The notes under the pieces are model-generated. The model worked only from the letters and a program-made list of their open reading frames with translations. It was not told where the DNA came from and made no database searches. Shown here one piece after another: positions 8,846 through 21,413 of a stretch of 64,000 nucleotides of DNA. The number at the start of each line of letters is the position of its first letter. Within the stretch, counting starts at the first letter, position 1. Made by a program: the position numbers and the translations under genes. This DNA comes from a bacterium (lineage in GTDB: Bacteria; Patescibacteriota; Minisyncoccia; Sungbacterales; HO2-52-23), in contig JAUYPE010000017.1 in NCBI GenBank assembly GCA_030697705.1, positions 5,066-69,065 of the forward strand, in the 5' to 3' direction.

Positions 8846-8935
8846 TGGTCGTCATCCCGAACGAAGTGAGGGATCCCGTACGGTTTCAGTATTCTGAATG
8901 ATAACGGGATTCCTCGTTAGCACTCGGAATGACGG
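8846..8935. repeat. palindromic dispersed repeat (MITE/REP-like), unit about GTCATyCCGArnGAAGyGAGGrATCCC in inverted pair
   Basis: gtcatcccgaacgaagtgagggatcccg ... cgggattcctcgttagcactcggaatgac. Related copies at 47307-47425 and 49634-49735. Confidence 0.6.
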
Positions 8936-9003
8936 AACAGAGGTAAGCATATAAATCCTAAAAATAGTCTCTTCCATCGTAACAAAACCCATCTCTTTGC
9001 GTC

Positions 9004-9048
9004 AAAAAAAATAAAAATCCCACCGCCGCATATCGCTTGGGGTGGGAT
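9004..9048 (-). terminator. rho-independent terminator for gene 9091..9405
   Basis: On the minus strand: 9-bp stem aatcccacc / ggtgggatt, then a T-run. Confidence 0.55.
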
Positions 9049-9090
9049 TATTTCGCCTCCTTTCCCCCGCTATTTTTGCAAGAACCTTGG

Positions 9091-9405
9091 TCAGCCAGCC
9101 ACTTCATAATACTGCAGAGCACTCTGTTCCGCCTCAAGCCAGTCCTCAAGGGCATCAGCATCCTTATGCAACCTGTAAACTTTCTCGGCTTCGTTCCTTA
9201 TTTTCTCACGAAGCGGAGAATAACCGATTCCAAAAGGAGGGTGAGAGAAAGTTCCAAAGAGGTGCTCCGCCTCATACCAATTGCGATCCCTCCGACGCTT
9301 TTCTTTGTCATGCCACCTTAACCAAGCCCGCACTTGCACGAGATGACTAAACTTCTCAAGAGACACCGGTTCTCTGTACCTTATTCGACTTACCTCACCC
9401 ATGGT
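9091..9405 (-). CDS. hypothetical protein
   Basis: Start at MGEVSRIRY. The longer ORF-track start would overlap the GIY-YIG gene. Confidence 0.4.
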   Translation of the reverse strand, partial: TMGEVSRIRYREPVSLEKFSHLVQVRAWLRWHDKEKRRRDRNWYEAEHLFGTFSHPPFGIGYSPLREKIRNEAEKVYRLHKDADALEDWLEAEQSALQYYEVAG

Positions 9406-9499
9406 CAGTCTCCTCGGTTCGCAGGTTTTTCTCCTACCCTTTCCTATCTCAACGAGAGCACAAACATAGCATAAACAATTTTTTCCGTCAAACGACGGG

Positions 9500-9763
9500 T
9501 CATCCAGTCGATGGGTTTGCCCTTGCGCACAGTTCCCATTTTTGCGTCCGCGTGAGTTTTTTGAGCGCATACTCCCGCCGCATGGCTCCGCGTCGCGTGC
9601 GGCACAGTTCCGCATACCGCACGACCACCGGTCGGCGTGTTCTGGTATACCGTGCACCTGACTTCAGAGAATTATGCGCATGGAGACGCCGTGCCAAATC
9701 ATTCGTCGCGCCGACATAGAGCGTCCCGTCAGCGCACTCAAGAATATAAACGCAGTACCTCAT
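9500..9763 (-). CDS. GIY-YIG nuclease family protein (UPF0213-like)
   Basis: YCVYILECADGTLYVGATNDLARRLHAHN, canonical GIY-YIG. Confidence 0.8.
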   Translation of the reverse strand: MRYCVYILECADGTLYVGATNDLARRLHAHNSLKSGARYTRTRRPVVVRYAELCRTRRGAMRREYALKKLTRTQKWELCARANPSTG

Positions 9764-9774
9764 AGCAGTCCGTT

Positions 9775-11229
9775 TTACTCCTTTTCCAGATCAAGCACCT
9801 CGTCAATACGGATTTTGGCGACGAATTCCGGCACGTGACTCACGAGAATCATTGCGCCTTCGTAGCGATTCAGTGCCTCGGCAATGACGGGAATGTGGCG
9901 GAAGTTCATGTGGTTCGTTGGCTCGTCAAGCATAAGGAGTCCGGGGCGTTGCAGAACCAGACGCGCAAAGGTGACAAGCCCTTTCTGCCCTTCCGAGAGA
10001 GCGCCGATTTTCGTGCGAATCATATCGGCGGTGATGAGAAATCCTGCCGCTGCGCTGCGCATCTCTTCCTCAACTGGAGCCGCCATCGCCCCCATGAGCG
10101 TGTCGTGCACTGTATCGTCAAAGTTAAGCGTTGAAAAATCCTGGCGGTAGTAGCCCACGCGCGTACCCTCGGTGATACGACTACCCTTAGCTATGCCTTT
10201 GGCAATTGATTCCAATAGCGTAGACTTCCCGATGCCATTTTGCCCTTTCAACAAAAGATGCTGGCGGCGCTTGAGCGAGATAGCAACAGTTTTTTTGACG
10301 GGCTTATGGTTTTTGATAATAGAAAATGAAGTGATGCCGACGATTTCACCGATACTGTCCTCTTGTGCCGGAATAGTGAATCGCCGAATCGCACGGTCTT
10401 CCTTGCGCACCACCACCTTCTCCTCCTCAAGCTCCGCCGCCTCCTCGCGCATGCGCTTCGCCACCAGGCGCATCTGCCCGCCCTTAAACGCAAACCGGTT
10501 CGCCTTGTCTTTATTCTCCTGAATTTTTTTAGCAAGTTGGGCGTTGGCGCGGTTCTCCTTTTCTATCCGCGCGGTAATTTGCGCCACGACGTCAAAATAA
10601 TTTCCCGCATAGTGCTCCAGCCGCTGGGTGAAAGCATCAAGATACAGCACGCCTTCAGTAAACGCGTTCAAAAAATCGGCATCATGCGAAATGACCATGC
10701 AGGTCTTGGGATAGTCAATGAGGAATTGCCGCAGATGCGCGATACCCGCCGCATCAAGATTGTTTGTTGGCTCGTCAAGAAGTAATACGTCCGGCTCCTG
10801 GATAAGCGCGGAAGCAAGAAGTAAACGCGCCTGCTGTCCTCCGGAGAACGACGAAATCAATCGGTCATGCGGTGCGTGGAGATTCATCACCTCAAGCACC
10901 GCATCAATTTTCGGATCAATATCATATACTTTTTTGCTGAAGCATTTTTCAAAAAACCCCTGCACGGTGAGATTCAGTTCTCCGCGCGGCATTGCTTGGC
11001 GCGCCGTTGCAATAGTAAGCCCGCGGGGAATATTAATAGACCCTTCATCAGGTTTTAACACACCGGTTATCAGCCCGAAAAGCGTGCTCTTGCCGGCACC
11101 GTTCTGCCCCATGACGGCAAACTTCGCGCCCTGTCGCAGAGCAAAACTCCCCTCTTTCATGATGAGTTTTTTCGGCCCGTATTCAAATGAAACCGCGTCA
11201 AACCGCACGACGACATCTCCCTGCGACAT
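9775..11229 (-). CDS. ABC-F family ATPase (two ABC domains, no TM domain)
   Basis: Two Walker A motifs (GQNGAGKST, GQNGIGKST) and two LSGGQ-like signatures (SGGQQARL, SEGQKGLV). Confidence 0.85.
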   Translation of the reverse strand: MSQGDVVVRFDAVSFEYGPKKLIMKEGSFALRQGAKFAVMGQNGAGKSTLFGLITGVLKPDEGSINIPRGLTIATARQAMPRGELNLTVQGFFEKCFSKKVYDIDPKIDAVLEVMNLHAPHDRLISSFSGGQQARLLLASALIQEPDVLLLDEPTNNLDAAGIAHLRQFLIDYPKTCMVISHDADFLNAFTEGVLYLDAFTQRLEHYAGNYFDVVAQITARIEKENRANAQLAKKIQENKDKANRFAFKGGQMRLVAKRMREEAAELEEEKVVVRKEDRAIRRFTIPAQEDSIGEIVGITSFSIIKNHKPVKKTVAISLKRRQHLLLKGQNGIGKSTLLESIAKGIAKGSRITEGTRVGYYRQDFSTLNFDDTVHDTLMGAMAAPVEEEMRSAAAGFLITADMIRTKIGALSEGQKGLVTFARLVLQRPGLLMLDEPTNHMNFRHIPVIAEALNRYEGAMILVSHVPEFVAKIRIDEVLDLEKE

Positions 11230-11325
11230 GCCCGCCAGCGTACCCTATTTTAAGACAAAGGGAAAGGGAGGAAAAAACCATGTTCCATCTTTATCTGTGT
11301 TCATTATCTAAAAATTCCTTGTATA

Positions 11326-12246
11326 TCAGCGGATTCCCGTATCAACATCAATCATGAGCGTCACGGAGCTATTCGTCTTGATATGGACAAGAATGGGAAC
11401 ACCACTGATCCCCCCAACGCCAACCCCCGGATGCGCCATATCAATCCAATAATCCCCCTCCGGCAAAGTCGCGCTGAACTTTCCTTCCGCGTCCGGGGTG
11501 AGTGTGACGACAAGCGTCTTTTTATCCGGCTTATAGACGAAAACTTTCCGTATGGCAAATGTTTCCGGCGATGGCGTGCAGGGACGGTCAATCCTTTCCA
11601 CAGGGCAGATGGGGCCGATCGTCATCACGCCTTCCAGTGTGCCAGTTTTTGTTGTTTGCGGCTGAACGGAAAAACGGATAGGGATGGAAAGTGAATCCGC
11701 ATATTCGGGAAGTCCGGAGGGATTATCCTTTTCCAAAACGATTGTGCCGGTTTTTGTTGTTGCATTTTCAAATATAAGAGTCGCCTCAAACGGAACGAAC
11801 TCCGTTGTCATCCACTCCTTTTGCGCCTGTGCGGGAATAATGCCGAGTTGCTTTCCATTCGCGTCAAAAATCTTAACCGGAAACGATGCTTCAAAATACC
11901 AAGTCCCCCGCGCCTCTCCTTTCACGATGAGCGGACTCGCCACCACGGTATCGGGAAGCGGCGAGCTCACGCGAATAATATCATTTTCTGTTGGTTGGAT
12001 GACTTCGGGCGGCTGTACCGTTTCCGTAAACGACTTTTCCCCCGCGCGGCATTGGCGCGGATAGGATTCCGCCACCGGAAATCCCAAACCTGCGCATCGC
12101 GCAAAACTGTCTGCCGCCCGAATTTTTTGCCATTGAAACACAAAGCACCAGTCATCCGTGCATGAGAGAATAAACCAGCCTCCAAGGCCGGCAACGACCG
12201 CGAGAACGCTCGTTATGGCAATAGCTAATTTTATTTTCATGTTCAA
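11326..12246 (-). CDS. GerMN / Gmad2 Ig-like domain secreted lipoprotein-like protein
   Basis: N-terminal anchor. Repeated beta-rich domains typical of GerM-like proteins. Confidence 0.45.
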   Translation of the reverse strand: MNMKIKLAIAITSVLAVVAGLGGWFILSCTDDWCFVFQWQKIRAADSFARCAGLGFPVAESYPRQCRAGEKSFTETVQPPEVIQPTENDIIRVSSPLPDTVVASPLIVKGEARGTWYFEASFPVKIFDANGKQLGIIPAQAQKEWMTTEFVPFEATLIFENATTKTGTIVLEKDNPSGLPEYADSLSIPIRFSVQPQTTKTGTLEGVMTIGPICPVERIDRPCTPSPETFAIRKVFVYKPDKKTLVVTLTPDAEGKFSATLPEGDYWIDMAHPGVGVGGISGVPILVHIKTNSSVTLMIDVDTGIR

Positions 12247-12264
12247 TTGTAATTATACTTTTGA

Positions 12265-13236
12265 TTAATCGATAATCTCTTTGATGAGCAGATCTTGCAA
12301 TTTCTTTACCTCTGCATCGTCATACATGCTCACGGTCGTTACCAGCGGCGTTAGCTTTTTCATAGACTTGACTATCATGTCTAGTTTTTTTTGGTCGTCC
12401 ATCACGTCGGTTTTGGTCAAAACGACAATTTCTTTTTTTTGCGCGAGCGCCGGATCAAAGCGTTCAAGCTCTCTGCGGACGACGGCATAGGTGTGCGGGA
12501 GATCTTCATGTTCCAATGAAATCAGATGGGCGAGCACTTTCGTGCGTCTGACATGCCGGAGAAATTTATGCCCCAAACCCCTCCCTTCCGCCGCACCTTC
12601 AATGAGTCCGGGAATATCGGAAATGATATAGCCGTGTACCTCGCCGAGATTCGGCTCAAGCGTGGTAAAAGCATAGTCGCCCACCTTGCCCTTGGCATTC
12701 GTCATCGCATTAAGAAGTGTTGTTTTTCCGGCGTTCGGCAGTCCGATCAAACCGATATCCGCAATTAATTCAACCTCAATAAAAAAATCCGCCTCCTCTC
12801 CCGCACTGCCGCGCGTGAATTTTTCGGGCGTCTGATTCGTGGAGCTTTTGAACGACTCGTTGCCCCGTCCCCCATGGCCGCCCTTGAGCAGGAGCACGCG
12901 CTCGCCGTCGTGCAGGAGTGAAATTTTCTCTCCCGTTTTTTTGTTGGTAATGATGGAGCCGACCGGAAACGGTATCTCAAGATCTTTGCCGTCCCCGCCG
13001 TGCGAGTTTTTATTTTTGCCATTCTCCCCCCGTTCCGCTATAAATTTCTTCTCAATCTGATACCGTGCGAGAAGATTGACATTGCGCACCGCCGTCGCGT
13101 ACACGCTCCCTCCTCGTCCGCCATCGCCGCCGGACGGCCCGCCAAATTCGCGATTTTTCTCATGCAACCACCGCACCACGCCGTGGCCGCCGTCCCCCGC
13201 CTTAATATGCAATGTTATCTCATCAACGAATGCCAT
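12265..13236 (-). CDS. obg: GTPase Obg
   Basis: FVDEITLHIKAGDGGHGVV, GGDGGRGGSV, Gly-rich Obg fold, G domain GLPNAGKSTLL and DIPGLIEGA. Start at MAFVDE. Confidence 0.9.
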   Translation of the reverse strand: MAFVDEITLHIKAGDGGHGVVRWLHEKNREFGGPSGGDGGRGGSVYATAVRNVNLLARYQIEKKFIAERGENGKNKNSHGGDGKDLEIPFPVGSIITNKKTGEKISLLHDGERVLLLKGGHGGRGNESFKSSTNQTPEKFTRGSAGEEADFFIEVELIADIGLIGLPNAGKTTLLNAMTNAKGKVGDYAFTTLEPNLGEVHGYIISDIPGLIEGAAEGRGLGHKFLRHVRRTKVLAHLISLEHEDLPHTYAVVRRELERFDPALAQKKEIVVLTKTDVMDDQKKLDMIVKSMKKLTPLVTTVSMYDDAEVKKLQDLLIKEIID

Positions 13237-13258
13237 AGATAGTGTGGACATGTATCAT

Positions 13259-13861
13259 TCACCCTTGTTGAACGACATTCAATTCAGAACATGCAAAAAG
13301 ATAAAGGGGATTGAATTTTTCCTTAGGATTAAAGAAGGAACAGAATTGCGTCTCATGAGTATTCTGAAAGATGTCTTTATAACGAACCGTTCCTGTCACA
13401 TAAACTTTAAGTTGTTCAGATTGCACCTGTTGTAATTCTTCAGTATTGAGAGCTCTACCATCAGTAACTCTCATAGCACGTTCTGAGTTTGAGCCAAGCA
13501 TGATTTTTCCATTTTGAGCCATAAAGTCAGATTGTATCGTTGTTGGGGGGGTTGAAATTATGTCTAGGTGTCCTGAAAATTGCATATCTAAAGCAGGTGT
13601 TGTCCCTGCATTTTTTACCAATATTTCAGCAGCCAGCGGGCGGTCTTGATTTGGTAATTCAGCTATTCTTATTGTCTCAATAACAATGTATGGTCGTTGC
13701 GCAATCAGAAAAAAATCATGTGCTTGACTAAGAGATTGAACAGCTACATATGCTGAGTATGCTGAAATAAATACACTAAACAATGAGAAAAGTGCCAACA
13801 ACGTCGAAACTTTATTTTCTGGTTTTTCTATCCACTGCGGGGAGGTAATCTTTTCTTCCAT
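13259..13861 (-). CDS. hypothetical membrane-anchored protein (AT-rich region)
   Basis: N-terminal TM helix. No recognisable family. Confidence 0.45.
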   Translation of the reverse strand: MEEKITSPQWIEKPENKVSTLLALFSLFSVFISAYSAYVAVQSLSQAHDFFLIAQRPYIVIETIRIAELPNQDRPLAAEILVKNAGTTPALDMQFSGHLDIISTPPTTIQSDFMAQNGKIMLGSNSERAMRVTDGRALNTEELQQVQSEQLKVYVTGTVRYKDIFQNTHETQFCSFFNPKEKFNPLYLFACSELNVVQQG

Positions 13862-14174
13862 GTGTGGGTTATTATTCTAGATTCTATGCCCCAGATTTTT
13901 ATACGATCTTCATATTGTAGAAGGGTTATTTTATTTTCGGAATAGCTTAGGCAACAAGGTACGCGTCGGCGAGAGTGTACTGTGAGCACATGGTAAGAAT
14001 GAGGAAAGCATATCATGCTTCTGGCGCGCGGGCTATCTGTTATAGGTAGTGGCACATTGCTACGGTTCATATTATACGCTCACGCAAAGACCTCCAGAAT
14101 ATGTGCCAGCTGTGCATATGAGAATCCGTTTAAAAATGCCCCATGCGAATGCCGGGACATAAATATTGTGCTCT

Positions 14175-14219
14175 TTGCCAATCTTTCCGAATAAAAATAA
14201 ACCTCCAGAACATTCATGA
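14175..14219 (-). terminator. rho-independent terminator for gene 14214..14597
   Basis: Stem cctccaga / tctggagg, followed on the minus strand by TTTATTTTTATT. Confidence 0.55.
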
Positions 14220-14597
14220 CTCTGGAGGTTGGTAGGTATTTATCCAGCGTCCTCTTCGATATATCTTCTCTTTATCTAAGAAACTTTCCAACCGATACTG
14301 CGCTTCACTCGCTTCACGGATAAGCGTGAATGTTGCCGCAGGCCGGTATCCGAGGTCAAGGTTTGGTATCTCGTCCGGATGCCATCCGGTCATCTCGCAA
14401 ATTTTTTGTGCAATTCTCCTTGTTCGCACAAAGATTCGGCATCCATCCACCGGATCTTGTTCTTCTCCTTCATCGTTAAAAACCAGAATATCGTACACAT
14501 CCACAACCACGACATCGGTTGTGGCGTGGAACAGCTCGCGCACGTGAGCGGGCGTCTCTACCCAAGGAATCCGCATTGCTTGAATCCTCGCACGCAA
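14214..14597 (-). CDS. hypothetical protein (downstream neighbour of the patatin gene)
   Basis: ORF only. No known motifs. Confidence 0.4.
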   Translation of the reverse strand: MRARIQAMRIPWVETPAHVRELFHATTDVVVVDVYDILVFNDEGEEQDPVDGCRIFVRTRRIAQKICEMTGWHPDEIPNLDLGYRPAATFTLIREASEAQYRLESFLDKEKIYRRGRWINTYQPPES

Positions 14598-14737
14598 GAG
14601 TGACCATGCTATAAAATATACTGAAATATAAATAACATATATTATGGCTACCCGTCAACTCCGCACTATAGACAATATTAGAATCTGTTTTCAAAGTCAG
14701 AATCGCTTATATCCTTATCTCATCACCCTTTCCGATG

Positions 14738-15763
14738 TCAGAGATTTGGTTTGCTGATTTTAGCTTTTATCGGCACTGCGTCTCGGCGGTGCCGTGTAGC
14801 CATTTGTGTAGCGTGTGCCTGAAAACTGTCAAAGTCCCATCGGCTAAAGAAATCACGTCCCGTAGCAACACCCGACTGATAGAGGGCTTCTTTTCGTTGA
14901 GGCGTGATATTAAACTCCGTCGTATGCACGCCAAGCGTGGGAATCGGAATTGTCCGCATGAAATCAGTATCTTTGATATAACGCGCATCGTGCGCTTCCA
15001 TCATGGTTGAGAATAGCGCGCTCAAAAGGGTGATAGGGCCGATGATGGTATGCAATTTTCCTTCTTCCGGATCAACCAATTTAAATCCGAGAGTCGGCCA
15101 ATCCTGATGAAATCCTTTGCCGGGCTCATCCAGAATAAAAAGAGGATAATTGCTTAAAATACCACCATCAACAAGATATGCTTTTTTTTGGTCAGGTAAT
15201 CTTTGTATTATCGGTTTGTAGAAGTAGGGAATGCTCATGCTCATCCTTACCGCAAGAGCCACATTAAGATTATCCGGGTTGATGCCAAAATCCTTCGCGT
15301 CTCCCGGCATAATCAGTAATCGTCCGCGCGAGATGTCTGACACTACCACTTGCAGTTTGTAACGGAATTGGGGGTCGTCGGCATATTCCTGAATCACCAA
15401 ATCGCCGAACGTCTTAATACCCTTTTTAGCAAGAAGTTCACCCATCCAATTTTTTAAAAAATCGCCTTTATACAGGCCCTTGTTAAAGAGAAGATTGATT
15501 GCCGGCCCCACCAAGGGAATCGCACCAATTGCATTGGCATCTTTGAAGCGCAGATAATCGATTTCATCCATGAGTGTTTTTAATTCCGCGGTCGAATAGC
15601 CGGCGGCAACAAGTCCCGCGATAATCGCCCCCGCAGAGGTTCCTGCGAGATTGACAAACTCGTATCCCAATTCTTCCGCCACCGCAACAGCGCCAACCAG
15701 CCCGCTCCCCTTTACCCCCCCGCCCTCAAACACCGCATCTATTTTTTGAGATGGTATGCTCAT
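14738..15763 (-). CDS. patatin-like phospholipase
   Basis: GGGVKG oxyanion hole, GTSAG nucleophile elbow, DGG catalytic Asp motif. Confidence 0.85.
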   Translation of the reverse strand: MSIPSQKIDAVFEGGGVKGSGLVGAVAVAEELGYEFVNLAGTSAGAIIAGLVAAGYSTAELKTLMDEIDYLRFKDANAIGAIPLVGPAINLLFNKGLYKGDFLKNWMGELLAKKGIKTFGDLVIQEYADDPQFRYKLQVVVSDISRGRLLIMPGDAKDFGINPDNLNVALAVRMSMSIPYFYKPIIQRLPDQKKAYLVDGGILSNYPLFILDEPGKGFHQDWPTLGFKLVDPEEGKLHTIIGPITLLSALFSTMMEAHDARYIKDTDFMRTIPIPTLGVHTTEFNITPQRKEALYQSGVATGRDFFSRWDFDSFQAHATQMATRHRRDAVPIKAKISKPNL

Positions 15764-16131
15764 AAGATTAGACCCCTTTGGGTGGAATAAAAAATCCTTA
15801 TCTTGAAGTTGAGTATATCACACATCAAGCAATTACCGGTAGAAGACGTCCCTGTATGTTTACGAAGAAAATATACGGTTAGAACCTGAAATTTATCCCA
15901 TAGATAAAAGAAAAAGAGCACCTTTCAGTGCTCTCAATCCCAAGGGACTCCGGCTACTGGATGAAGTTAGAACCTGTTTACTAGAAGGAAGATCGGCTTT
16001 TGCATATAGTTTTGCGGCATAATTACGCCCAACTCTGCTCTGTTAAATTTACCCAAAAATGATCTGCCCCGCAACGACTGAACGCTGCGGGGACTTTTGT
16101 TGAATAAAAATCTGATGACATGAACGAGGAG

Positions 16132-16698
16132 CTATCTCCTGTTGCCTACTCCTTTGAGCACTTTGAACTCAAAGATATAGATACCAAGATGCTCCTTTTC
16201 AGGCGGATAGATGCGCTGGAGCACTTGTAGAGCACCAGCAGGATCATCGGGAACAATATGCCCCGCTTTCTCGTGCTGAAGCATCTCTGAAAAAGTTTTA
16301 TACATGCGCACATCTACCACCTGCACTACCCCAGAAAGCCGTTCGCTCTCCAAGCGGACACTGTCGCCTTTCTGTATCCGCTTGATACTGTCATAGCCAA
16401 CACGCGCCTCCAAAGGTTTTGTGCCTGCCATAATCGCGTTGAAATACTGCCGTTTGACTCGCATCGTCTTCATCACTTTTTCCTCCATAACGAGACCCCA
16501 TTGTTGAGTGATTACGCCGCGCTTGTATGCTTCCGGCATCATGGCTTCAATCTGCCATCCATGATGCTGGAGTGTTTCTACCTCCACACTTGTGGGAACT
16601 GTGTGGGTATAGAGTTTGTGCCCATACTCCCGTAAAAATGACGGGAGTTCTGCCACCAGAGCCGAGAATACCTGAATGTCTTCGGCAACAAGCGGCAT
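16132..16698 (-). CDS. ASCH (PUA-like) domain protein with N-terminal extension
   Basis: C-terminal half (MKTMRVKRQYFNAIMAGTKPLEAR ... IYIFEF) fits ASCH. Hairpin plus T-run terminator downstream at about 16040-16090. Confidence 0.5.
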   Translation of the reverse strand: MPLVAEDIQVFSALVAELPSFLREYGHKLYTHTVPTSVEVETLQHHGWQIEAMMPEAYKRGVITQQWGLVMEEKVMKTMRVKRQYFNAIMAGTKPLEARVGYDSIKRIQKGDSVRLESERLSGVVQVVDVRMYKTFSEMLQHEKAGHIVPDDPAGALQVLQRIYPPEKEHLGIYIFEFKVLKGVGNRR

Positions 16699-16776
16699 TA
16701 GTTTGATGGGCTCTCCTTTTTTGGGAGTTGTGGCGGCAATTCCAAGTACGGTCCCATCAGGAGATTTCGCAACCAG

Positions 16777-17115
16777 TTAGTCAATGACCTCAACCCGTAT
16801 CCCAACCACCCCATATTTTTGCTCATCCTCATCAGAATAAAATTGCTTTATTTGATTGAGAAGAAACTCCCTGCTTTCTCCGCCAAAAAGAGAAGGGTCA
16901 TGATCGGCAAACAGTTCCCTGAACGATTGATAACGGAGCAATCCTTTCACTCGTGTTTTGACTTTTTTCTCGGGATTTTCATGTGCACTAAACTCAATTT
17001 TATCTCCTATAATGATTTGCTGTCGCTTCTCATCATAGAGGCGCGACTCAATAACTTTCGCATGAGTAGCGATTTTTTCAAAAGGTTCGGATGATAATTT
17101 CATTTGGTACTGCAT
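16777..17115 (-). CDS. ASCH domain protein
   Basis: MKLSSEPFEKIATHAKVIESRLYDEKR ... IGDKIEF ... GIRVEV, classic ASCH layout. Confidence 0.55.
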   Translation of the reverse strand: MQYQMKLSSEPFEKIATHAKVIESRLYDEKRQQIIIGDKIEFSAHENPEKKVKTRVKGLLRYQSFRELFADHDPSLFGGESREFLLNQIKQFYSDEDEQKYGVVGIRVEVID

Positions 17116-17237
17116 AGGATTCCGCTTGACTTTGTTGTATCAATAATGATTCAAACAAGATCATCTCTTTCCCCTGCAAGGAAAATCAGTTTTTGCGTAT
17201 GATTTTTGAGTATAAACCTACCCCACCCTGCCACTCA

Positions 17238-17606
17238 CTATATCATTCTCTCCAATACCACAGTCCTGTATTTGCAATCAACTATGGCTTTATAACCAAA
17301 CTTTGATAAGAAGCTGATACCTGCTAACGGCATACTTTCTGATATTAAAACTTGAATGTAATTTAGCACTCCTTCCATCGCCGCAAGTGCAAGGGCTACA
17401 GGGACTTCAATAACCTGACCATTAGCAATTTGTGTTTTAGTTACACCAATAACTTCAAGCCCAAGTTCCTTTGCTATTTTTTGCGTTACTTGTAAATCTC
17501 CAGTAAAACCCGTGTCTAAAACAACAAAAGGGGCTTGCACAGATTGCCCCCAAGCCACGACAACTTTTATGAACGGTATGTTTTCTACAAAGACGCCGCT
17601 TACCAT
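17238..17606 (-). CDS. retropepsin-like (clan AA) aspartic protease
   Basis: VVLDTGFTGDL (DTG catalytic motif), about 120 aa as for single-domain retropepsins. Confidence 0.65.
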   Translation of the reverse strand: MVSGVFVENIPFIKVVVAWGQSVQAPFVVLDTGFTGDLQVTQKIAKELGLEVIGVTKTQIANGQVIEVPVALALAAMEGVLNYIQVLISESMPLAGISFLSKFGYKAIVDCKYRTVVLERMI

Positions 17607-17609
17607 ATT

Positions 17610-17888
17610 TTATTTATGTTCAGCAAAAGACCCTGCCATTGTTTCAGCCACATCAAATCCTATCTTCACGACATAAAAGACCTTGTGAGGATGATTTTGT
17701 CTAGCTAATTCAAGAGCTTCAGCACTCGTGTTGCCGAGGTATGCTTTTTTGCTATCAATATCAATAGCCAAAAACTTACCCCTTTCTTTGGGATCATAAC
17801 TAACCTTTATCTGCCCATATATTTTAGCCCCTTCCTCGGCAATCTTCTGAATATCTGCCTTTTTAATTAGTTCTTCATTATTATCCAT
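17610..17888 (-). CDS. small protein paired with the retropepsin-like protease (DUF5678-like)
   Basis: 4-nt spacing to the protease gene. Family assignment from memory, not verified. Confidence 0.4.
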   Translation of the reverse strand: MDNNEELIKKADIQKIAEEGAKIYGQIKVSYDPKERGKFLAIDIDSKKAYLGNTSAEALELARQNHPHKVFYVVKIGFDVAETMAGSFAEHK

Positions 17889-18112
17889 AAGGTTTGAAAA
17901 GGTAAGGAGTTAACAATAACTCTACCATAGCACCCATTTATAGAGAATACAACAATGCACCCCACCCCGCGTAGCACCATTTCTCTATGTTTAGGTTATC
18001 CCCACCCCCTCTTGACTCTCAACGCCCAGCAGGTATACAGTGAGCACATACACGCTCCAGCCAGCCGCAAGGCCCGCTGGAGTTTCCCGTTTTTACTGGT
18101 ACAATCAAGGAT

Positions 18113-18689
18113 ATGGCGACCTATTTGTTCATTGACGGGGAAAACTTCAAGGGTAAGGTACGCGCGGTTTTCAAAGACGCCAGTAAGCAACGGCCAGTAT
18201 GGCATGAGTATGACTTTAAGGGTCTTTTGGACAAGGTGCTCAATGGCATTGCCATAGATCGGCAGGTATTCTATTTTGCCAGTATTAAGGAGCACGCGGA
18301 AAGCATGGAGAAGTCAAAGCAACTGATTGAAGAACAACGCCTGCTCAAGACCCATCTTGAGCGGCAGGGTGCGGGGTCAGGTGGAAGACGGCAAGTGGAT
18401 GAGGAAGGTATTGATTTTCAGAGAGAAGGGTGTGGATGTTCGGATTGCCGTGGATATGATGGCTACCGCGTGCGATAAAAAAGCGGATGAGATTATTTTG
18501 GGAAGTTCTGATTCTGATTTACAGCCGGCCATAAAAGAGGTACGAGAGCATGGGGTCAAATGCGTATACCTAGGTTTTGAGACGCAACCAAACAAAGGCA
18601 TCTCTTACAATACCAACCGAACTATTCTCGTTCGCAATTCAGAGATTTTTGAGTTTGAGAAAATAGGTAGCAAGTCAAAAGAGAATTGA
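18113..18689 (+). pseudogene. NYN/LabA-like (DUF88) nuclease gene interrupted by a frameshift
   Basis: N-terminal half in frame 2 (YLFIDGENF ...) and C-terminal half in frame 0 (KGVDVRIAVDMM ... ILGSSDSDLQPAI ... VYLGF) overlap at 18327-18478. Frame switch near 18355-18400 (ggtgcggggtcaggtgg). Confidence 0.7.
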
Positions 18690-18727
18690 AACAGAAATAT
18701 CCTATAATAATGTGATCACTCGCTTTC

Positions 18728-19147
18728 TTACAATGACGGATTTGCATTGAGGTGATGAAGGAGTTTGTCTATAACCTCATTCTGGGAGTAATTTCCCTTA
18801 ATCATATAGTCAATGGCACCAAGAGCCATTCCTTGCTCAATATCTTCTTTCTGACCACAATTCGTCAGAAAAACAACCGGAATACCTTTGGTACGCTGGT
18901 CATTCTTCAACATGCGCACTGCTTGAAAACCTTCGTGGCTCACAATAAGATCCATGGTGATAATATCGGGCTTTATCTCAAAGACCTTCTCAATGAAATC
19001 ATCTGGTATCTTCTCCAATGAAAAGAAGTCAAATCCTCTTTCCTCAAATATTACTTTGTACATGTCGGTGATGAATACATCTTGCTCAACGAACAGAATC
19101 TTATAGTGATTTTTTGTTTTATTTTCATTCATATTTTTCTTTTCCAT
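18728..19147 (-). CDS. stand-alone response-regulator receiver (REC) domain protein
   Basis: CheY-like fold: ILFVEQD, phospho-acceptor D in IITMDL, conserved T (VVFLT) and K (IKG). Confidence 0.8.
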   Translation of the reverse strand: MEKKNMNENKTKNHYKILFVEQDVFITDMYKVIFEERGFDFFSLEKIPDDFIEKVFEIKPDIITMDLIVSHEGFQAVRMLKNDQRTKGIPVVFLTNCGQKEDIEQGMALGAIDYMIKGNYSQNEVIDKLLHHLNANPSL

Positions 19148-19150
19148 AAC

Positions 19151-19543
19151 TCAAAGTGGTAATCGTTTCCAGCCGTTCCAATCGTCCTTTCGCGCATCCT
19201 TGCCGTCACCCTCATAGAGCATCCATTGTCCAGTATACTTGCGGGTGTCTGTATTTGCCACAATACCACCGAATACTTTGCGGCCTTTCTTTTTCAATCC
19301 AGCGATATATGCCCGCAGACCGTCTGACTTTGATGCGAAGTCCGTCAAGTGTATGCCATGCGGATCAAAAAGCCCGATACTTCCGTCTTTTATCATTACG
19401 ACAAAATCAACATAGAATGGCGCTTGATCATCTTTTGGCCCATACTGCACGGCAAGGAATACTGCGTCGCGGTCTCCGTTTTTGAACCACCAAAGACAAA
19501 GTATCAAAAAAACGGCAATACGCATCACTATACTTATTACCAT
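19151..19543 (-). CDS. hypothetical membrane-anchored protein
   Basis: Stop is 3 nt upstream of the REC gene start (operon-like). N-terminal TM helix. Start uncertain (19543 or 19525). Confidence 0.4.
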   Translation of the reverse strand: MVISIVMRIAVFLILCLWWFKNGDRDAVFLAVQYGPKDDQAPFYVDFVVMIKDGSIGLFDPHGIHLTDFASKSDGLRAYIAGLKKKGRKVFGGIVANTDTRKYTGQWMLYEGDGKDARKDDWNGWKRLPL

Positions 19544-20182
19544 TGCACGAAACGCAAAGACCCGAACTGTACTCAACCAGCCATAGAAGAAGATGAGCTT
19601 GAAAAGCAGATTGCCGCCGAGCTTGCCAAGCTGGAAATCCCCACTGATTTCAAGGATTGGGCTATGGCGCGCTTGCGTGATATGAATACGCAAGAGGTAT
19701 CAGACCGAGAACAGATTTGCGGTAACCAACGGCGCGAATACGATGCGTGCGTGCGCAAGGTCAATAATCTCATTGATATGCGAGCCAACGGCGAGATTGA
19801 CGAGGATGAGTTCAAAAACAGGAAGACCGCGCTTTTGGCAGAAAAGGCGCGGCTTCAAGAGTTTCTGAATGATACCGATAAGCGCGTGGACAACTGGCTT
19901 GAGATCGCCGCGCGCGGCTTTAATTTTGCGGAAAAAGCTCGTGGAGCGTTTGAAACGGGCGGCGCTGAGGTCAGGAAAGAGATTTTTGCCGCGTTAGGTT
20001 CGGACTTCCTGCTGAAAGACAGAAAATTAAGCATTTCACTGGATAATCTGCTGTTTCCGATACAAACTGCCGCAAAAGAAGCTCAAAACATTTCTACAAG
20101 GTTAGAACCTGCAAAAAACGCGATAGATAAAAAAGAAATCGGGCATTTATATGCCCGAAATCCTGTCATGCTCCGGCGGTAG
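19538..20182 (+). pseudogene. large serine recombinase C-terminal remnant (zinc-ribbon YYHC motif plus coiled-coil), catalytic domain missing
   Basis: YYHCTKRKDPNCTQPAIEEDELEKQIAAELAKLEIP and a long coiled-coil region match the C-terminal part of large serine recombinases. Nothing resolvase-like upstream. Ends overlapping the tRNA-Asn 3' end. Confidence 0.55.
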
Positions 20183-20208
20183 GATTCGAACCTACGACCC
20201 ACTGGTTA

Positions 20209-20748
20209 CATGTATTCCATTATTTCCATAATGGCATGGACTATATCTTTACCGTATGGTTTTGCCAATGCTCGCCATGTAGGTACTCTGGTATCTAGTC
20301 TCTACGGAGCTCCCCGCTAAAAGGCAGGGTTCCCACGGTATTACCCGTCTTTGTGTCAAAAAGATTTGGGCTTCACCGTTATCCCAGAGAGTTCACTCTT
20401 GGGTTTCCCCAGGAGGCTGCGCTATGCCTGCGTGTATCTCTCGGTGACAATTCGCGCATACGAGAACGCATTTATTGATTTCCTTTTTGATCTTTTCCCA
20501 ACTGCGCGTTACTCCGCGCACCGAGATACCGAAATCTTTTTTCTTTGGGTCAAGATGATGAAAATCGAGCGCTCCCGCATAGCGTTTATAGCCACAAAGC
20601 TGACATTTGTCGCCCTCGTATTCACGTGCCATTGTGCAAAGTTTATGTCTTCGCTCTGAAACAGCTTTTCGCAGATACTCGGCACGATCGGCATACGTTC
20701 TTTTATCTGGCATGCATGGTTAAGTATACCAGACTGGCGAACTCGTTC
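20209..20748 (-). other. group I intron (self-splicing) within tRNA-Asn, carrying an HNH endonuclease ORF
   Basis: 5' exon ends in U, intron ends in G (…acatg|taa). Conserved group I core elements: R-like gagactagatac and S-like aaagatatagtcc in the 3' part. Confidence 0.7.
20393..20713 (-). CDS. HNH homing endonuclease (intron-encoded)
   Basis: CQLCGYKRY..GALDFHHLDPKKKDF ... CANCHREIH, HNH with two Cys pairs. Same orientation as the tRNA, starts 35 nt inside the intron. Confidence 0.8.
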   Translation of the reverse strand: MPDKRTYADRAEYLRKAVSERRHKLCTMAREYEGDKCQLCGYKRYAGALDFHHLDPKKKDFGISVRGVTRSWEKIKKEINKCVLVCANCHREIHAGIAQPPGETQE

Positions 20749-21348
20749 ACAGCCAGTCGCTCTACCACTGAGCTACGCCGGAATATGATTCTGGAAAAGT
20801 ACGTACCCTCACCATCCGCGACCAGTATAACAAGCGTGCGGAGGATTCGCAAGCAGGTGTATCCGTCCACCTCACATTGGACTTTTCTGATTGAGCGCTT
20901 ACCATAACCGGGACCGTCAATCGTTTTGCGTAAATAGTCCTGTGGATAAGTTTTTCTCGACGCAGCGTTCATGAAAGTTTGACCTGATCAGGATGCAAGA
21001 TTGCAATACTCGCATGATCATTGAGCTGAACTTCAGAAATCTCAAACTGTTCTTCGGTCTTGTTACCTCGCTTCCCCGATCAATCAATGGCTACCTCGCC
21101 AACTACTTTTATTCAATCCTTGCCTACGCGTTACGATAGTTTTCTTTTCTCCGTGATACCTTTTTCCTTCACCAATACGATACGCTTCAAAACTCACATC
21201 ACATGGGTCTGCTTTAGCGCACCCTGTTTATCTGGGGTTTGGGGAGTTTCGTAATTCAAAGAAAGAGTAATTAATAACGACATCATAATACCGGTACTTA
21301 CGTATGACAAGCATGGTTTTATCTACACCCTTCTTTTCAAAGGAACGC

Positions 21349-21384
21349 AGAAAAATGAACCTCCGACCAGCAAGCTGGTCGGAA
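21349..21384 (-). terminator. rho-independent terminator downstream of the PQQ dehydrogenase gene
   Basis: Stem tccgaccagc / gctggtcgga with T-run on the minus strand. Confidence 0.5.
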
Positions 21385-21413
21385 TAGTCTAGTTCAAGGC
21401 AGTATATTTCATC

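Follow-up and report, generated by a model that had tools for sequence, protein, structure and literature searches.

Remains of a small serine-integrase element, probably inserted beside an older relative at the 3' terminus of a tRNA-Asn gene

What kind of mobile DNA left a group of accessory genes between the 3' end of a tRNA-Asn gene and a short motif that recurs on both sides of it, and can this DNA still move? The question is raised by one locus in a 64-kb stretch of patescibacterial DNA, the whole of which is called the window in the following. A first-pass annotation had proposed a degraded integrative element at this tRNA 3' end, and the proposal is supported by homology to an intact element in another genome (locus L006), by an attP-type arm at the far end of the island (the P arm) and by the adjacency to the tRNA. 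According to the comparisons reported here, positions 15948-20174 very probably represent a dead, small, non-phage element of the large serine recombinase (LSR) type, termed E2, which was inserted at the 3' terminus of tRNA-Asn beside an older element, E1, and both have decayed. L-numbers denote fetched loci and P-numbers the LSR proteins in alignment A1. The recombinase and its apparent target adjoin at the right end of the island:

19493-20182, + strand: LSR remnant of ~230 C-terminal codons, covering the second half of the zinc ribbon, the coiled coil and the C-terminal extension
20171-20208, - strand: 3' exon of tRNA-Asn(GUU), with the right core at 20171-20177 and, as its T arm, the B arm (TTCGAAC from 20185); exons joined in silico

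The open reading frame (ORF) at 19349-20182 had been described as containing only the zinc-ribbon and coiled-coil parts of an LSR. This description is accurate from 19493 onward, where LSR homology starts (KTKYQKNGNTHHYTYYHC...) and from where it continues to the stop codon. The remnant keeps ~230 of ~548 codons and aligns with 72% amino acid and 77% DNA identity to residues ~319-546 of the 548-aa LSR of L006, which, together with the LSR of L005, is the nearest full-length copy (77% identity to the window fragment); the missing part, mapped against full-length LSRs, is residues 1 to ~318. The L006 protein contains the Pfam domains Resolvase (PF00239), Recombinase and Zn_ribbon_recom and matches the A118 serine integrase structures 4KIS and 6DNW. 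In the window ORF, Zn_ribbon_recom scores 24.5 bits against a cut-off of 25.3 (profile positions 18-57), and the zinc ribbon is incomplete, with only the YYHC..C half left and the first CxxC columns missing in alignment A1. The Recombinase domain (PF07508), present in L006, was not found in this ORF by Pfam, and upstream of 19493 no frame showed homology to LSR residues 1 to ~318, which include the catalytic Resolvase domain with the nucleophilic serine; the sequence there is the remnant of a restriction gene, res, on the opposite strand. In an AlphaFold2 model of the ORF, a long helical hairpin at residues 53-132 (predicted local distance difference test 86-96) fits the LSR coiled coil, and a Foldseek search with the predicted fragment structure gave serine integrase complexes as top matches, although weak ones (E 0.014). 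Because three defining domains were tested and are absent (the catalytic domain, the Recombinase domain and a complete zinc ribbon), the window copy is not a functional LSR, and by its homology it is clearly the remnant of one. The TAG stop codon of the ORF is located at 20180-20182 and the tRNA discriminator, the tRNA's 3' end, at 20171, which confirms the earlier observation that recombinase ORF and tRNA-Asn overlap by 12 nt.

The extent of decay becomes apparent from the closest intact relative of E2, the 10.5-kb element at L006 185-10693. Its genes are arranged in the order unknown ORF, SocA/Panacea, ResIII (with a Pfam ResIII match), N6_N4 methyltransferase, three unknown ORFs and LSR. 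Among these eight ORFs, four have no Pfam match at all and none matches a replication domain; phage genes are absent, and the cargo looks defence-type, with a type III restriction-modification (R-M) pair. Three blocks of the window are collinear with this element: 15948-16015 with L006 184-251 (81% DNA identity; far end of the element), 19177-19492 with L006 1238-1547 (75%), and 19499-20199 with L006 10007-10710 (77%; LSR 3' part and tRNA end). This collinearity points to a single deletion of ~8.4 kb in L006 terms, which would have removed most of res, the mod gene, three ORFs and LSR residues 1 to ~318. The deletion joins the res remnant to the LSR remnant at 19493-19498.

The motif that recurs on both sides of the island, RGTTAGAACCTG, is present exactly three times in the window, always on the + strand (15877, 15965 and 20100). 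About 0.25 matches are expected by chance and none of 100 shuffles reached three copies, in agreement with the first reading of these 12-mers as improbable by chance. They are nested in, and are the best-kept portion of, a longer diverged direct repeat of ~110 nt (15872-15981 vs 20095-20209). Its gapped local score of 59 compares with 20 +/- 3 (maximum 32) in shuffles and with a maximum of 40 for other window stretches. The right repeat copy combines three things: the final ~25 codons of ORF 19349-20182, a hairpin, and the 3' portion of the minus-strand tRNA. The left copy can be divided into the following features:

15872-15947, + strand: putative E1 LSR-gene relic of 76 nt, the last ~23 codons, with the open frame RLEPEIYPIDKRKRAPFSALNPKGL; gapped alignment to 20095-20170
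15948-15954, no strand assigned: left core CTCCGGC, a copy of the tRNA-Asn discriminator and six acceptor bases, identical to 20171-20177
15955-16015, + strand: putative attP-derived P arm of E2, with TACTGGATGAAGTTAGAACCTG at 15955-15976, including the third 12-mer (15965-15976), followed by ~40 nt of conserved element end

Thus divided, the far-end repeat appears not to be a simple att duplication; rather, the 3' end of an older LSR gene seems joined to the attP-type arm of E2. The 12-mer at 15965 would then be the outer motif of the P arm, and those at 15877 and 20100 two copies of a motif within the LSR gene (site B, see below), the former in the E1 relic and the latter in E2. The earlier suggestion that the 12-mers are relics of att or recombination sites, or a motif bounding the island, is borne out in this form, and their interpretation as family-specific, recombination-related motifs that mark both island ends is supported. 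The motifs are short and one copy overlaps conserved codons, as might be expected of chance or low-complexity repeats or of a host regulatory motif unrelated to mobile DNA. However, such an origin is extremely improbable in view of the shuffling result, of the absence of further copies in 64 kb, and of the location of all three copies at homologous positions of family-wide features found in dozens of unrelated genomes.

Seven left junctions (those of the window, L006, L029, L033, L046, L056 and L074) share one layout, in which 7-8 nt resembling a tRNA end are followed by YAYTGGAY and then by GAAGTYAGAACC. If distances are counted from the final base of the Pro codon conserved close to the LSR end (..NP..), the tRNA T-loop motif (T/C)TCGAAC starts after exactly 20 nt in 36/36 scored tRNA-type junctions, and the P-arm motif TT(A/G/C)GAAC after exactly 25 nt in all six P-type junctions. 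The window has both distances, 20 at its right end (20164 to 20185) and 25 at its left end (15941 to 15967), and the inner GGAT is equidistant in the two arm types. Given the crossover position proposed below, the motifs would lie at about bp 17-25 in the P arm and bp 12-20 in the B arm. In the LI integrase system, the motif bound by the zinc ribbon domain occupies bp 16-24 of the attP half-sites and lies 5 bp nearer the centre in attB, with unchanged contacts of the recombinase domain (PMC3783163). The 5-bp shift of the outer motif at constant inner motif seen here matches this attP/attB rule by sequence. The shift between arm motif and T-loop motif argues, in turn, that 15872-15976 is probably the fossil of a tandem-array junction.

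Live tandem arrays occur in other genomes. L021, L032, L049, L064 and L071 each contain two complete LSR genes in the same orientation; the tail of the upstream gene is followed by core and P arm, and the downstream gene adjoins the tRNA. An empty-site comparison, which the first-pass annotation had put forward as a check, succeeded with related loci: in the before/after pairs L065/L071, L084/L064 and L020/L021, one element has been inserted between LSR tail and tRNA, and L071, for example, equals the L065 element plus a 4.4-kb insertion (L071: 3768-8201) in front of tRNA-Gln. Homology within the pairs stops inside GCTG (Gln) or GCTCC (Asn), made up of the discriminator and the 2-3 acceptor bases next to it. 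Newly arriving elements are therefore placed right at the 3' terminus of the tRNA, between the tRNA and whatever follows it, which may be the LSR tail of an older element, and we infer that the crossover in the window took place within 15948-15951. Three more loci show further signs of serial insertion. L033 has two different left-junction types 180 nt apart (~290-305 and ~470-505), and in L072 and L082 a truncated tRNA fragment follows the LSR; in L082, the genuine tRNA-Arg is located 160 nt beyond it.

The relic to the left of the core contains a site B (15877-15888), a hairpin (15916-15933) and the conserved Asn-Pro codons (15936-15941). Its peptide resembles the tails of another subfamily (..KRKSAAFGDANPxWLR), and the stem sequence of its hairpin differs from that of the right copy. 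The P arm, behind relic and core, reads LLDEVRT, and the P-type LSR proteins P0005, P0041 and P0057 end likewise (LDEVRT). From these sequence features we conclude that an older element E1 probably sat at tRNA-Asn, that E2 was inserted beside the tRNA, and that both decayed. No other P-arm-like or GTTMGAACC site that could serve as a further left junction of E1 was found in the window. The tail relics of the window and of L074 stop at site B and those of L029 and L056 are similar, but the relic in L054 is longer and makes this regularity weak. An LSR-mediated deletion between P arm and site B was considered as the cause of the relic ends and rejected, because the predicted flank is absent in L074 and because of the longer L054 relic.

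Alternatively, E2 might have arrived in a single integration event at a naive tRNA-Asn, with the whole ~110-nt repeat of LSR tail and tRNA 3' half as one long attL/attR duplication. The two copies do bracket the island in direct orientation, and tRNA-associated elements of tyrosine integrases often carry long identity blocks. This scenario is nevertheless very unlikely. Conservative recombination duplicates only the bases shared by attP and attB, which amount to 3-5 nt in the before/after pairs, and no 70-nt stretch of LSR coding sequence would follow the tRNA at a naive site. Moreover, the left tail differs from the right one in its hairpin stem and has the tail peptide of another subfamily, and the live arrays with an intact upstream LSR demonstrate how such a junction forms. 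Successive insertion of E1 and E2 thus is the preferred explanation of the far end.

The 3' part of the LSR gene contains two T-arm-like sites and, on the opposite strand of its tail, a hairpin:

19997-20008, + strand: site A, GGTTCGGACTTC, T-arm-like; family consensus GGTTCGAACCTC, subfamily GGTTCGGACCTC; one base changed in the window
20100-20111, + strand: site B, GGTTAGAACCTG, the second 12-mer, codons R-L-E-P
20139-20158, - strand: terminator-like hairpin and T-tract directly 3' of tRNA-Asn, antisense to the LSR tail; best terminator-like match in the region

Across 81 LSR genes (43-77% amino acid identity to the window fragment, host GC content 28-62%), sites A and B show almost no synonymous change, and their core recurs in the P-arm motif and in the tRNA T loop. 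The Gly-Ser-Asn-Leu codons of site A are GGT in 96%, TCG in 96%, AAC in 100% and CTC in 87% of the genes. In site B, Leu is encoded by TTA in 56/57 cases and Glu by GAA in 77/77, and CCT reaches 79%; the most frequent Leu codon at other positions of the gene accounts for only 24-44%. Variants of site B with Phe in place of Leu read TTCGAACC, and the invariant of this site therefore is GTTMGAACC. Site A lies 105 nt upstream of site B, and the T-arm-like motifs, spaced ~105 and ~88 nt, are oriented like the P-arm motif. A long-range RNA helix between sites A and B was dismissed as the reason for their conservation, because variation falls mainly on the two central bases and GGTCAGAACC variants, by inspection, break pairs without compensation. 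Motifs frozen at synonymous sites point to a function at the DNA level that has not been described for serine integrases, and the likeliest ligand of these putative sites would be the zinc ribbon domain of the integrase. They could be accessory integrase-binding sites, in which case attP would be assembled from several sites, with parallels in res accessory sites and lambda arm sites. This idea is tentative and rather doubtful, and we know of no serine integrase that needs a multi-site assembly. If true, it could explain the targeting of an older LSR tail plus tRNA and hence the tandem arrays.

The terminator-like hairpin has an equivalent in the E1 relic (15935-15914, - strand), and hairpins with different stems are visible at the same position in many members of the LSR family. 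By inference, the element brings a replacement terminator for a tRNA whose own downstream region is displaced by the insertion. The replacement terminator, and the fact that deletions cannot enter an essential tRNA, would explain why LSR 3' ends outlive the remainder of the element. These considerations also bear on the possibility that the truncated ORF has been domesticated and encodes a working protein, such as a decoy or a regulator preventing further integration. A protein-database search with the fragment returned mainly fragments of 140-380 aa, many of them 'zinc ribbon domain-containing' proteins on long contigs; the 230-codon frame of the window copy is still open, and the family-invariant residues are kept. 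However, the points of truncation vary by locus (window, L001, L002, L008, L010, L013, L028 and L058), and the window copy starts exactly at a deletion junction within the remnant of another gene, lacks the first Cys pair of the zinc ribbon and is substituted at conserved positions and in site A. As the survival of the 3' end is accounted for by the nearby tRNA, domestication is very unlikely. The short database entries are read as contig-end truncations, gene-calling artefacts and genuine remnants, and many annotated 'zinc ribbon domain-containing proteins' are LSR tails.

The remnant belongs to a large family. In a scan of one genome per species, at least 572 relatives were detected, mostly in Patescibacteria and some on contigs labelled as other phyla; 80 loci were fetched and 82 non-redundant LSR copies classified. 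Most of the copies in these loci are full length (~530-550 aa) and have an in-frame catalytic domain. For 61 of the 82 copies, ARAGORN detects a convergent tRNA whose 3' end lies within a few nt: Asn in 31 cases, Gln in 20, Ser in 4, Lys in 2, and one case each of Ala, His, Glu and Gly. Seven further copies adjoin the 3' exon of an intron-split tRNA-Asn, which raises the tRNA-adjacent total to 68/82; another 7 run into a different conserved sequence, the P arm, and 3 reach the end of their contig. Many LSR ORFs read antisense through the tRNA T arm (..DSNL.., ..DSNQ..; alignment A1). Two alternative C-termini are found accordingly, one antisense into the tRNA (..LREQDSNL.., ..DLDSNQ..; P0004, P0018, P0029) and one reading into the P arm (..LRxLDDVRT..; P0005, P0041, P0057). 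As the C-terminus is set by what follows the crossover, integration alters the last residues of the integrase. To our knowledge, tRNA targeting has so far been a hallmark of tyrosine integrases. Full-text literature searches found no description of LSR elements that target tRNA termini in Patescibacteria, and the family, very common in these ultra-small bacteria of the Candidate Phyla Radiation, is apparently undescribed. Among the tycheposons of Prochlorococcus, 27 of 937 carry an LSR instead of a tyrosine recombinase (bioRxiv 10.1101/2020.12.28.424599). This LSR-bearing minority is the nearest, though passing, precedent that was found in the literature.

Together, these data suggest the following course of events. 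LSR-catalysed recombination between attP and attB would have placed E2 at the very 3' terminus of tRNA-Asn. In this family, the LSR gene points to the tRNA and has its own end within the tRNA gene; its last ~25 codons would serve both as one attP arm and as an antisense terminator for the tRNA. The other attP arm (..TGGAYGAAGTTAGAACC) would imitate the tRNA T arm, with the outer motif 5 bp further out. By inserting between the tRNA and the LSR tail of E1, E2 would have created a tandem array, in which E1 was later deleted down to 76 nt and E2 lost ~8.4 kb, including most of its type III R-M system and LSR residues 1 to ~318. After these deletions, neither element can move.

The surviving cargo of E2, from left to right, comprises the following genes:

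16132-16698, - strand: ASCH-domain protein 1 (188 aa; Pfam ASCH, E 2.9e-11)
16777-17115, - strand: ASCH-domain protein 2 (112 aa; Pfam ASCH, E 1.3e-10)
17238-17606, - strand: clan AA (retropepsin-like) aspartic protease (Pfam Asp_protease_2, E 0.0017, weak; NCBIfam TIGR03698, 35 bits, below cut-off)
17610-17888, - strand: 92-aa upstream partner of the protease, no family match
18113-18689, + strand: NYN/LabA-like nuclease pseudogene, frameshift near 18370-18400 (Pfam NYN in the second frame only)
18728-19147, - strand: stand-alone receiver (REC) protein (Pfam Response_reg, E 1.5e-10; NCBIfam PhoB-type matches, receiver part only)
19154-19498, - strand: type III restriction helicase (Res) remnant, the last 115 codons (72% amino acid identity to residues 630-742 of the 745-aa L006 ResIII)

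The first-pass calls for this cargo (two ASCH proteins, a retropepsin-like protease with a small partner, a frameshifted NYN nuclease and a REC protein) agree with the Pfam and NCBIfam matches. The merged NYN frames reach 63.4 bits and cover profile positions 2-126, and the frameshift is therefore real. The second ASCH protein has homologues in L011 (63% identity) and L040 (50%), whose genes lie on the far-end side of the LSR gene, ~9.5-10 kb upstream of it; homologues of the res remnant occur in two other loci, L006 and L036. The cargo varies between conserved ends: SocA/Panacea and type III R-M in L006, and two ASCH genes, the protease pair, NYN, REC and the res remnant in the window. PADLOC gave meaningful matches only for the NYN gene within the island and for a patatin gene in its flank. 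The description of the island as AT-rich applies to 16800-18000 and 18400-19200, where the GC content is 37-41% vs 49% in the window, and fails for the gene of ASCH protein 1, the 5' half of the NYN gene and the LSR remnant, all at window average. Pfam revealed no genes for phage structure or packaging, either in the window island or in the L006 element, and the best LSR relative on IMG/VR viral contigs was only 37% identical. A prophage was therefore rejected: phage genes are lacking, and viral LSR relatives do not exceed 37%.

In the search for an empty site of this very island, the neighbouring genes were of little help. The patatin-like phospholipase gene to its left (14738-15763) has copies with 93% (L086) and 83% (L087) protein identity. 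Around its homologues with 93%, 83%, 70% and 67% identity (L086-L091), both flanks are unrelated and a tRNA is absent, which makes this gene a poor synteny anchor. An exact look-up of the patatin protein retrieved only the same organism (L085), and one of the 411-aa protein in the right flank retrieved no record. A metagenome scan with the 16-mer across the exon/intron junction yielded 120 loci, none of them related to the window, the pattern being too short for that collection. Contig L255, from the same sample as L085, has the same island with the same two NYN ORFs and frameshift and thus provides no variant. In this independent assembly of the organism (SRR13727529), L085 and L255 cover window positions 8853-16331 and ~16301-20197 and break at ~16301-16331, inside the gene of ASCH protein 1, and at ~20197, in the tRNA T arm; the breaks could reflect strain variation or repeats. 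Further to the left, window 13200-14200 has a GC content of only 37-42%, and the block 13200-15763 may be variable or acquired DNA, possibly leftover cargo of E1. A free-standing GIY-YIG ORF (87 aa) at window ~9500-9763 (- strand; L085 6569-6832) was noted from precomputed Pfam annotation.

Several observations weigh against a decayed E2 beside E1. No near-identical genome without the island was found, and insertion into this genome is deduced; nor was an excised circular form or a recombination directionality factor identified. The left core shares only 7 nt with the tRNA end, the base composition of the island is merely patchily atypical, and the score of the intron model that underlies the split tRNA gene (RF00028, see below) stays under the gathering threshold. 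Furthermore, under the standard rules for LSRs attP cannot recombine with a hybrid site, yet the target of E2, an older LSR tail plus tRNA, formally is such an attR-like hybrid. In this family, attB may depend little on its distal half, since the naive flanks downstream of the tRNAs are not conserved.

The tRNA gene that received the element is itself interrupted:

20209-20748, - strand: predicted group I intron in the anticodon loop, between U35 and U36, with an HNH endonuclease ORF at 20393-20713 (Pfam HNH)
20749-20782, - strand: tRNA-Asn 5' exon (partial Rfam tRNA match; ARAGORN on the spliced product)

Joining 20782-20749 to 20208-20171 gives a canonical 72-nt tRNA-Asn(GTT), as called by ARAGORN on the spliced sequence. 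In the unspliced window, ARAGORN reports no tRNA at 20171-20782, because the 540-nt intron splits the gene, and the Rfam tRNA model likewise misses it. The Rfam group I intron model RF00028 matches 20217-20487 (- strand) with 36.5 bits (E 1.6e-6; gathering score 50). At the splice junctions, ..CTGT/GAACG.. and ..ACATG/TAACC, the 5' exon ends with U and the intron with G. In L011, L025, L038, L039, L047, L067 and L070, a tRNA-Asn 3' exon just downstream of the LSR is followed by intron-like sequence (..TTA/CAYnT..) at the same position, and homologues of the HNH ORF are present in L025 and L011. A promoter-like site (20852-20824, - strand) lies upstream of tRNA-Asn, within the ~630 nt between its 5' end and the next gene (20783-21413), which contain no convincing ORF. 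That group I introns hamper tRNA detection in metagenome-recovered genomes has been mentioned in passing (PMC8172020), and tRNA finders overlook the intron-split tRNA-Asn genes of Patescibacteria.

Taken by itself, the island is unremarkable genomic debris. Its significance is that it leads to a very large family of serine integrases that target tRNA termini, allow attP and attB to be read straight from genome sequence and display a natural tandem stacking of elements. For the tiny genomes of Patescibacteria, this family represents a route of entry for defence genes, and integrases with conserved tRNA-end targets could serve as landing pads for genome engineering.

Known bacterial group I introns in anticodon loops reside in cyanobacterial tRNA-Leu(UAA) and tRNA-fMet, Azoarcus tRNA-Ile and Agrobacterium tRNA-Arg. 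The window intron resembles them in its location in the anticodon loop, the U before the 5' splice site and the G at the 3' end. It differs in the host tRNA, Asn(GUU), in its insertion between positions 35 and 36 and in its HNH ORF, and its splicing is predicted.

The element family can likewise be compared with other integrating systems. Tyrosine-integrase islands at tRNA genes (P4-like elements, many integrative and conjugative elements, prophages) share with E2 the tRNA 3' end, the adjacent integrase gene and a distal partial repeat of the tRNA, and share with its family serial or tandem occupation, decay in place and defence-type cargo (R-M and toxin-antitoxin-related genes). Family and chemistry of the recombinase differ, however, and in the E2 family only 3-5 nt are shared at the crossover and no long tRNA 3' segment is restored. 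Tycheposons, compared here by description, occur in another host clade, mostly use tyrosine recombinases and in many cases carry replication modules. The known LSRs (A118/LI, phiC31, Bxb1, SPbeta SprA) resemble the family in the succession of Resolvase, Recombinase, zinc ribbon and coiled coil, supported by the similarity to A118 (4KIS), and in short att sites with an equidistant inner GGAT and an outer motif that lies 5 bp further out in attP. Unlike these enzymes, members of the family target the 3' termini of tRNA genes (Asn, Gln, Ser, Lys and others) instead of a protein-coding gene, use the 3' end of the integrase gene itself as an attP arm that reads antisense into the tRNA, and contain two intragenic T-arm-like motifs constrained at synonymous sites. 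New copies insert beside the LSR tail of older ones and build up tandem arrays, and the LSR copy in the window is itself a non-functional fragment.

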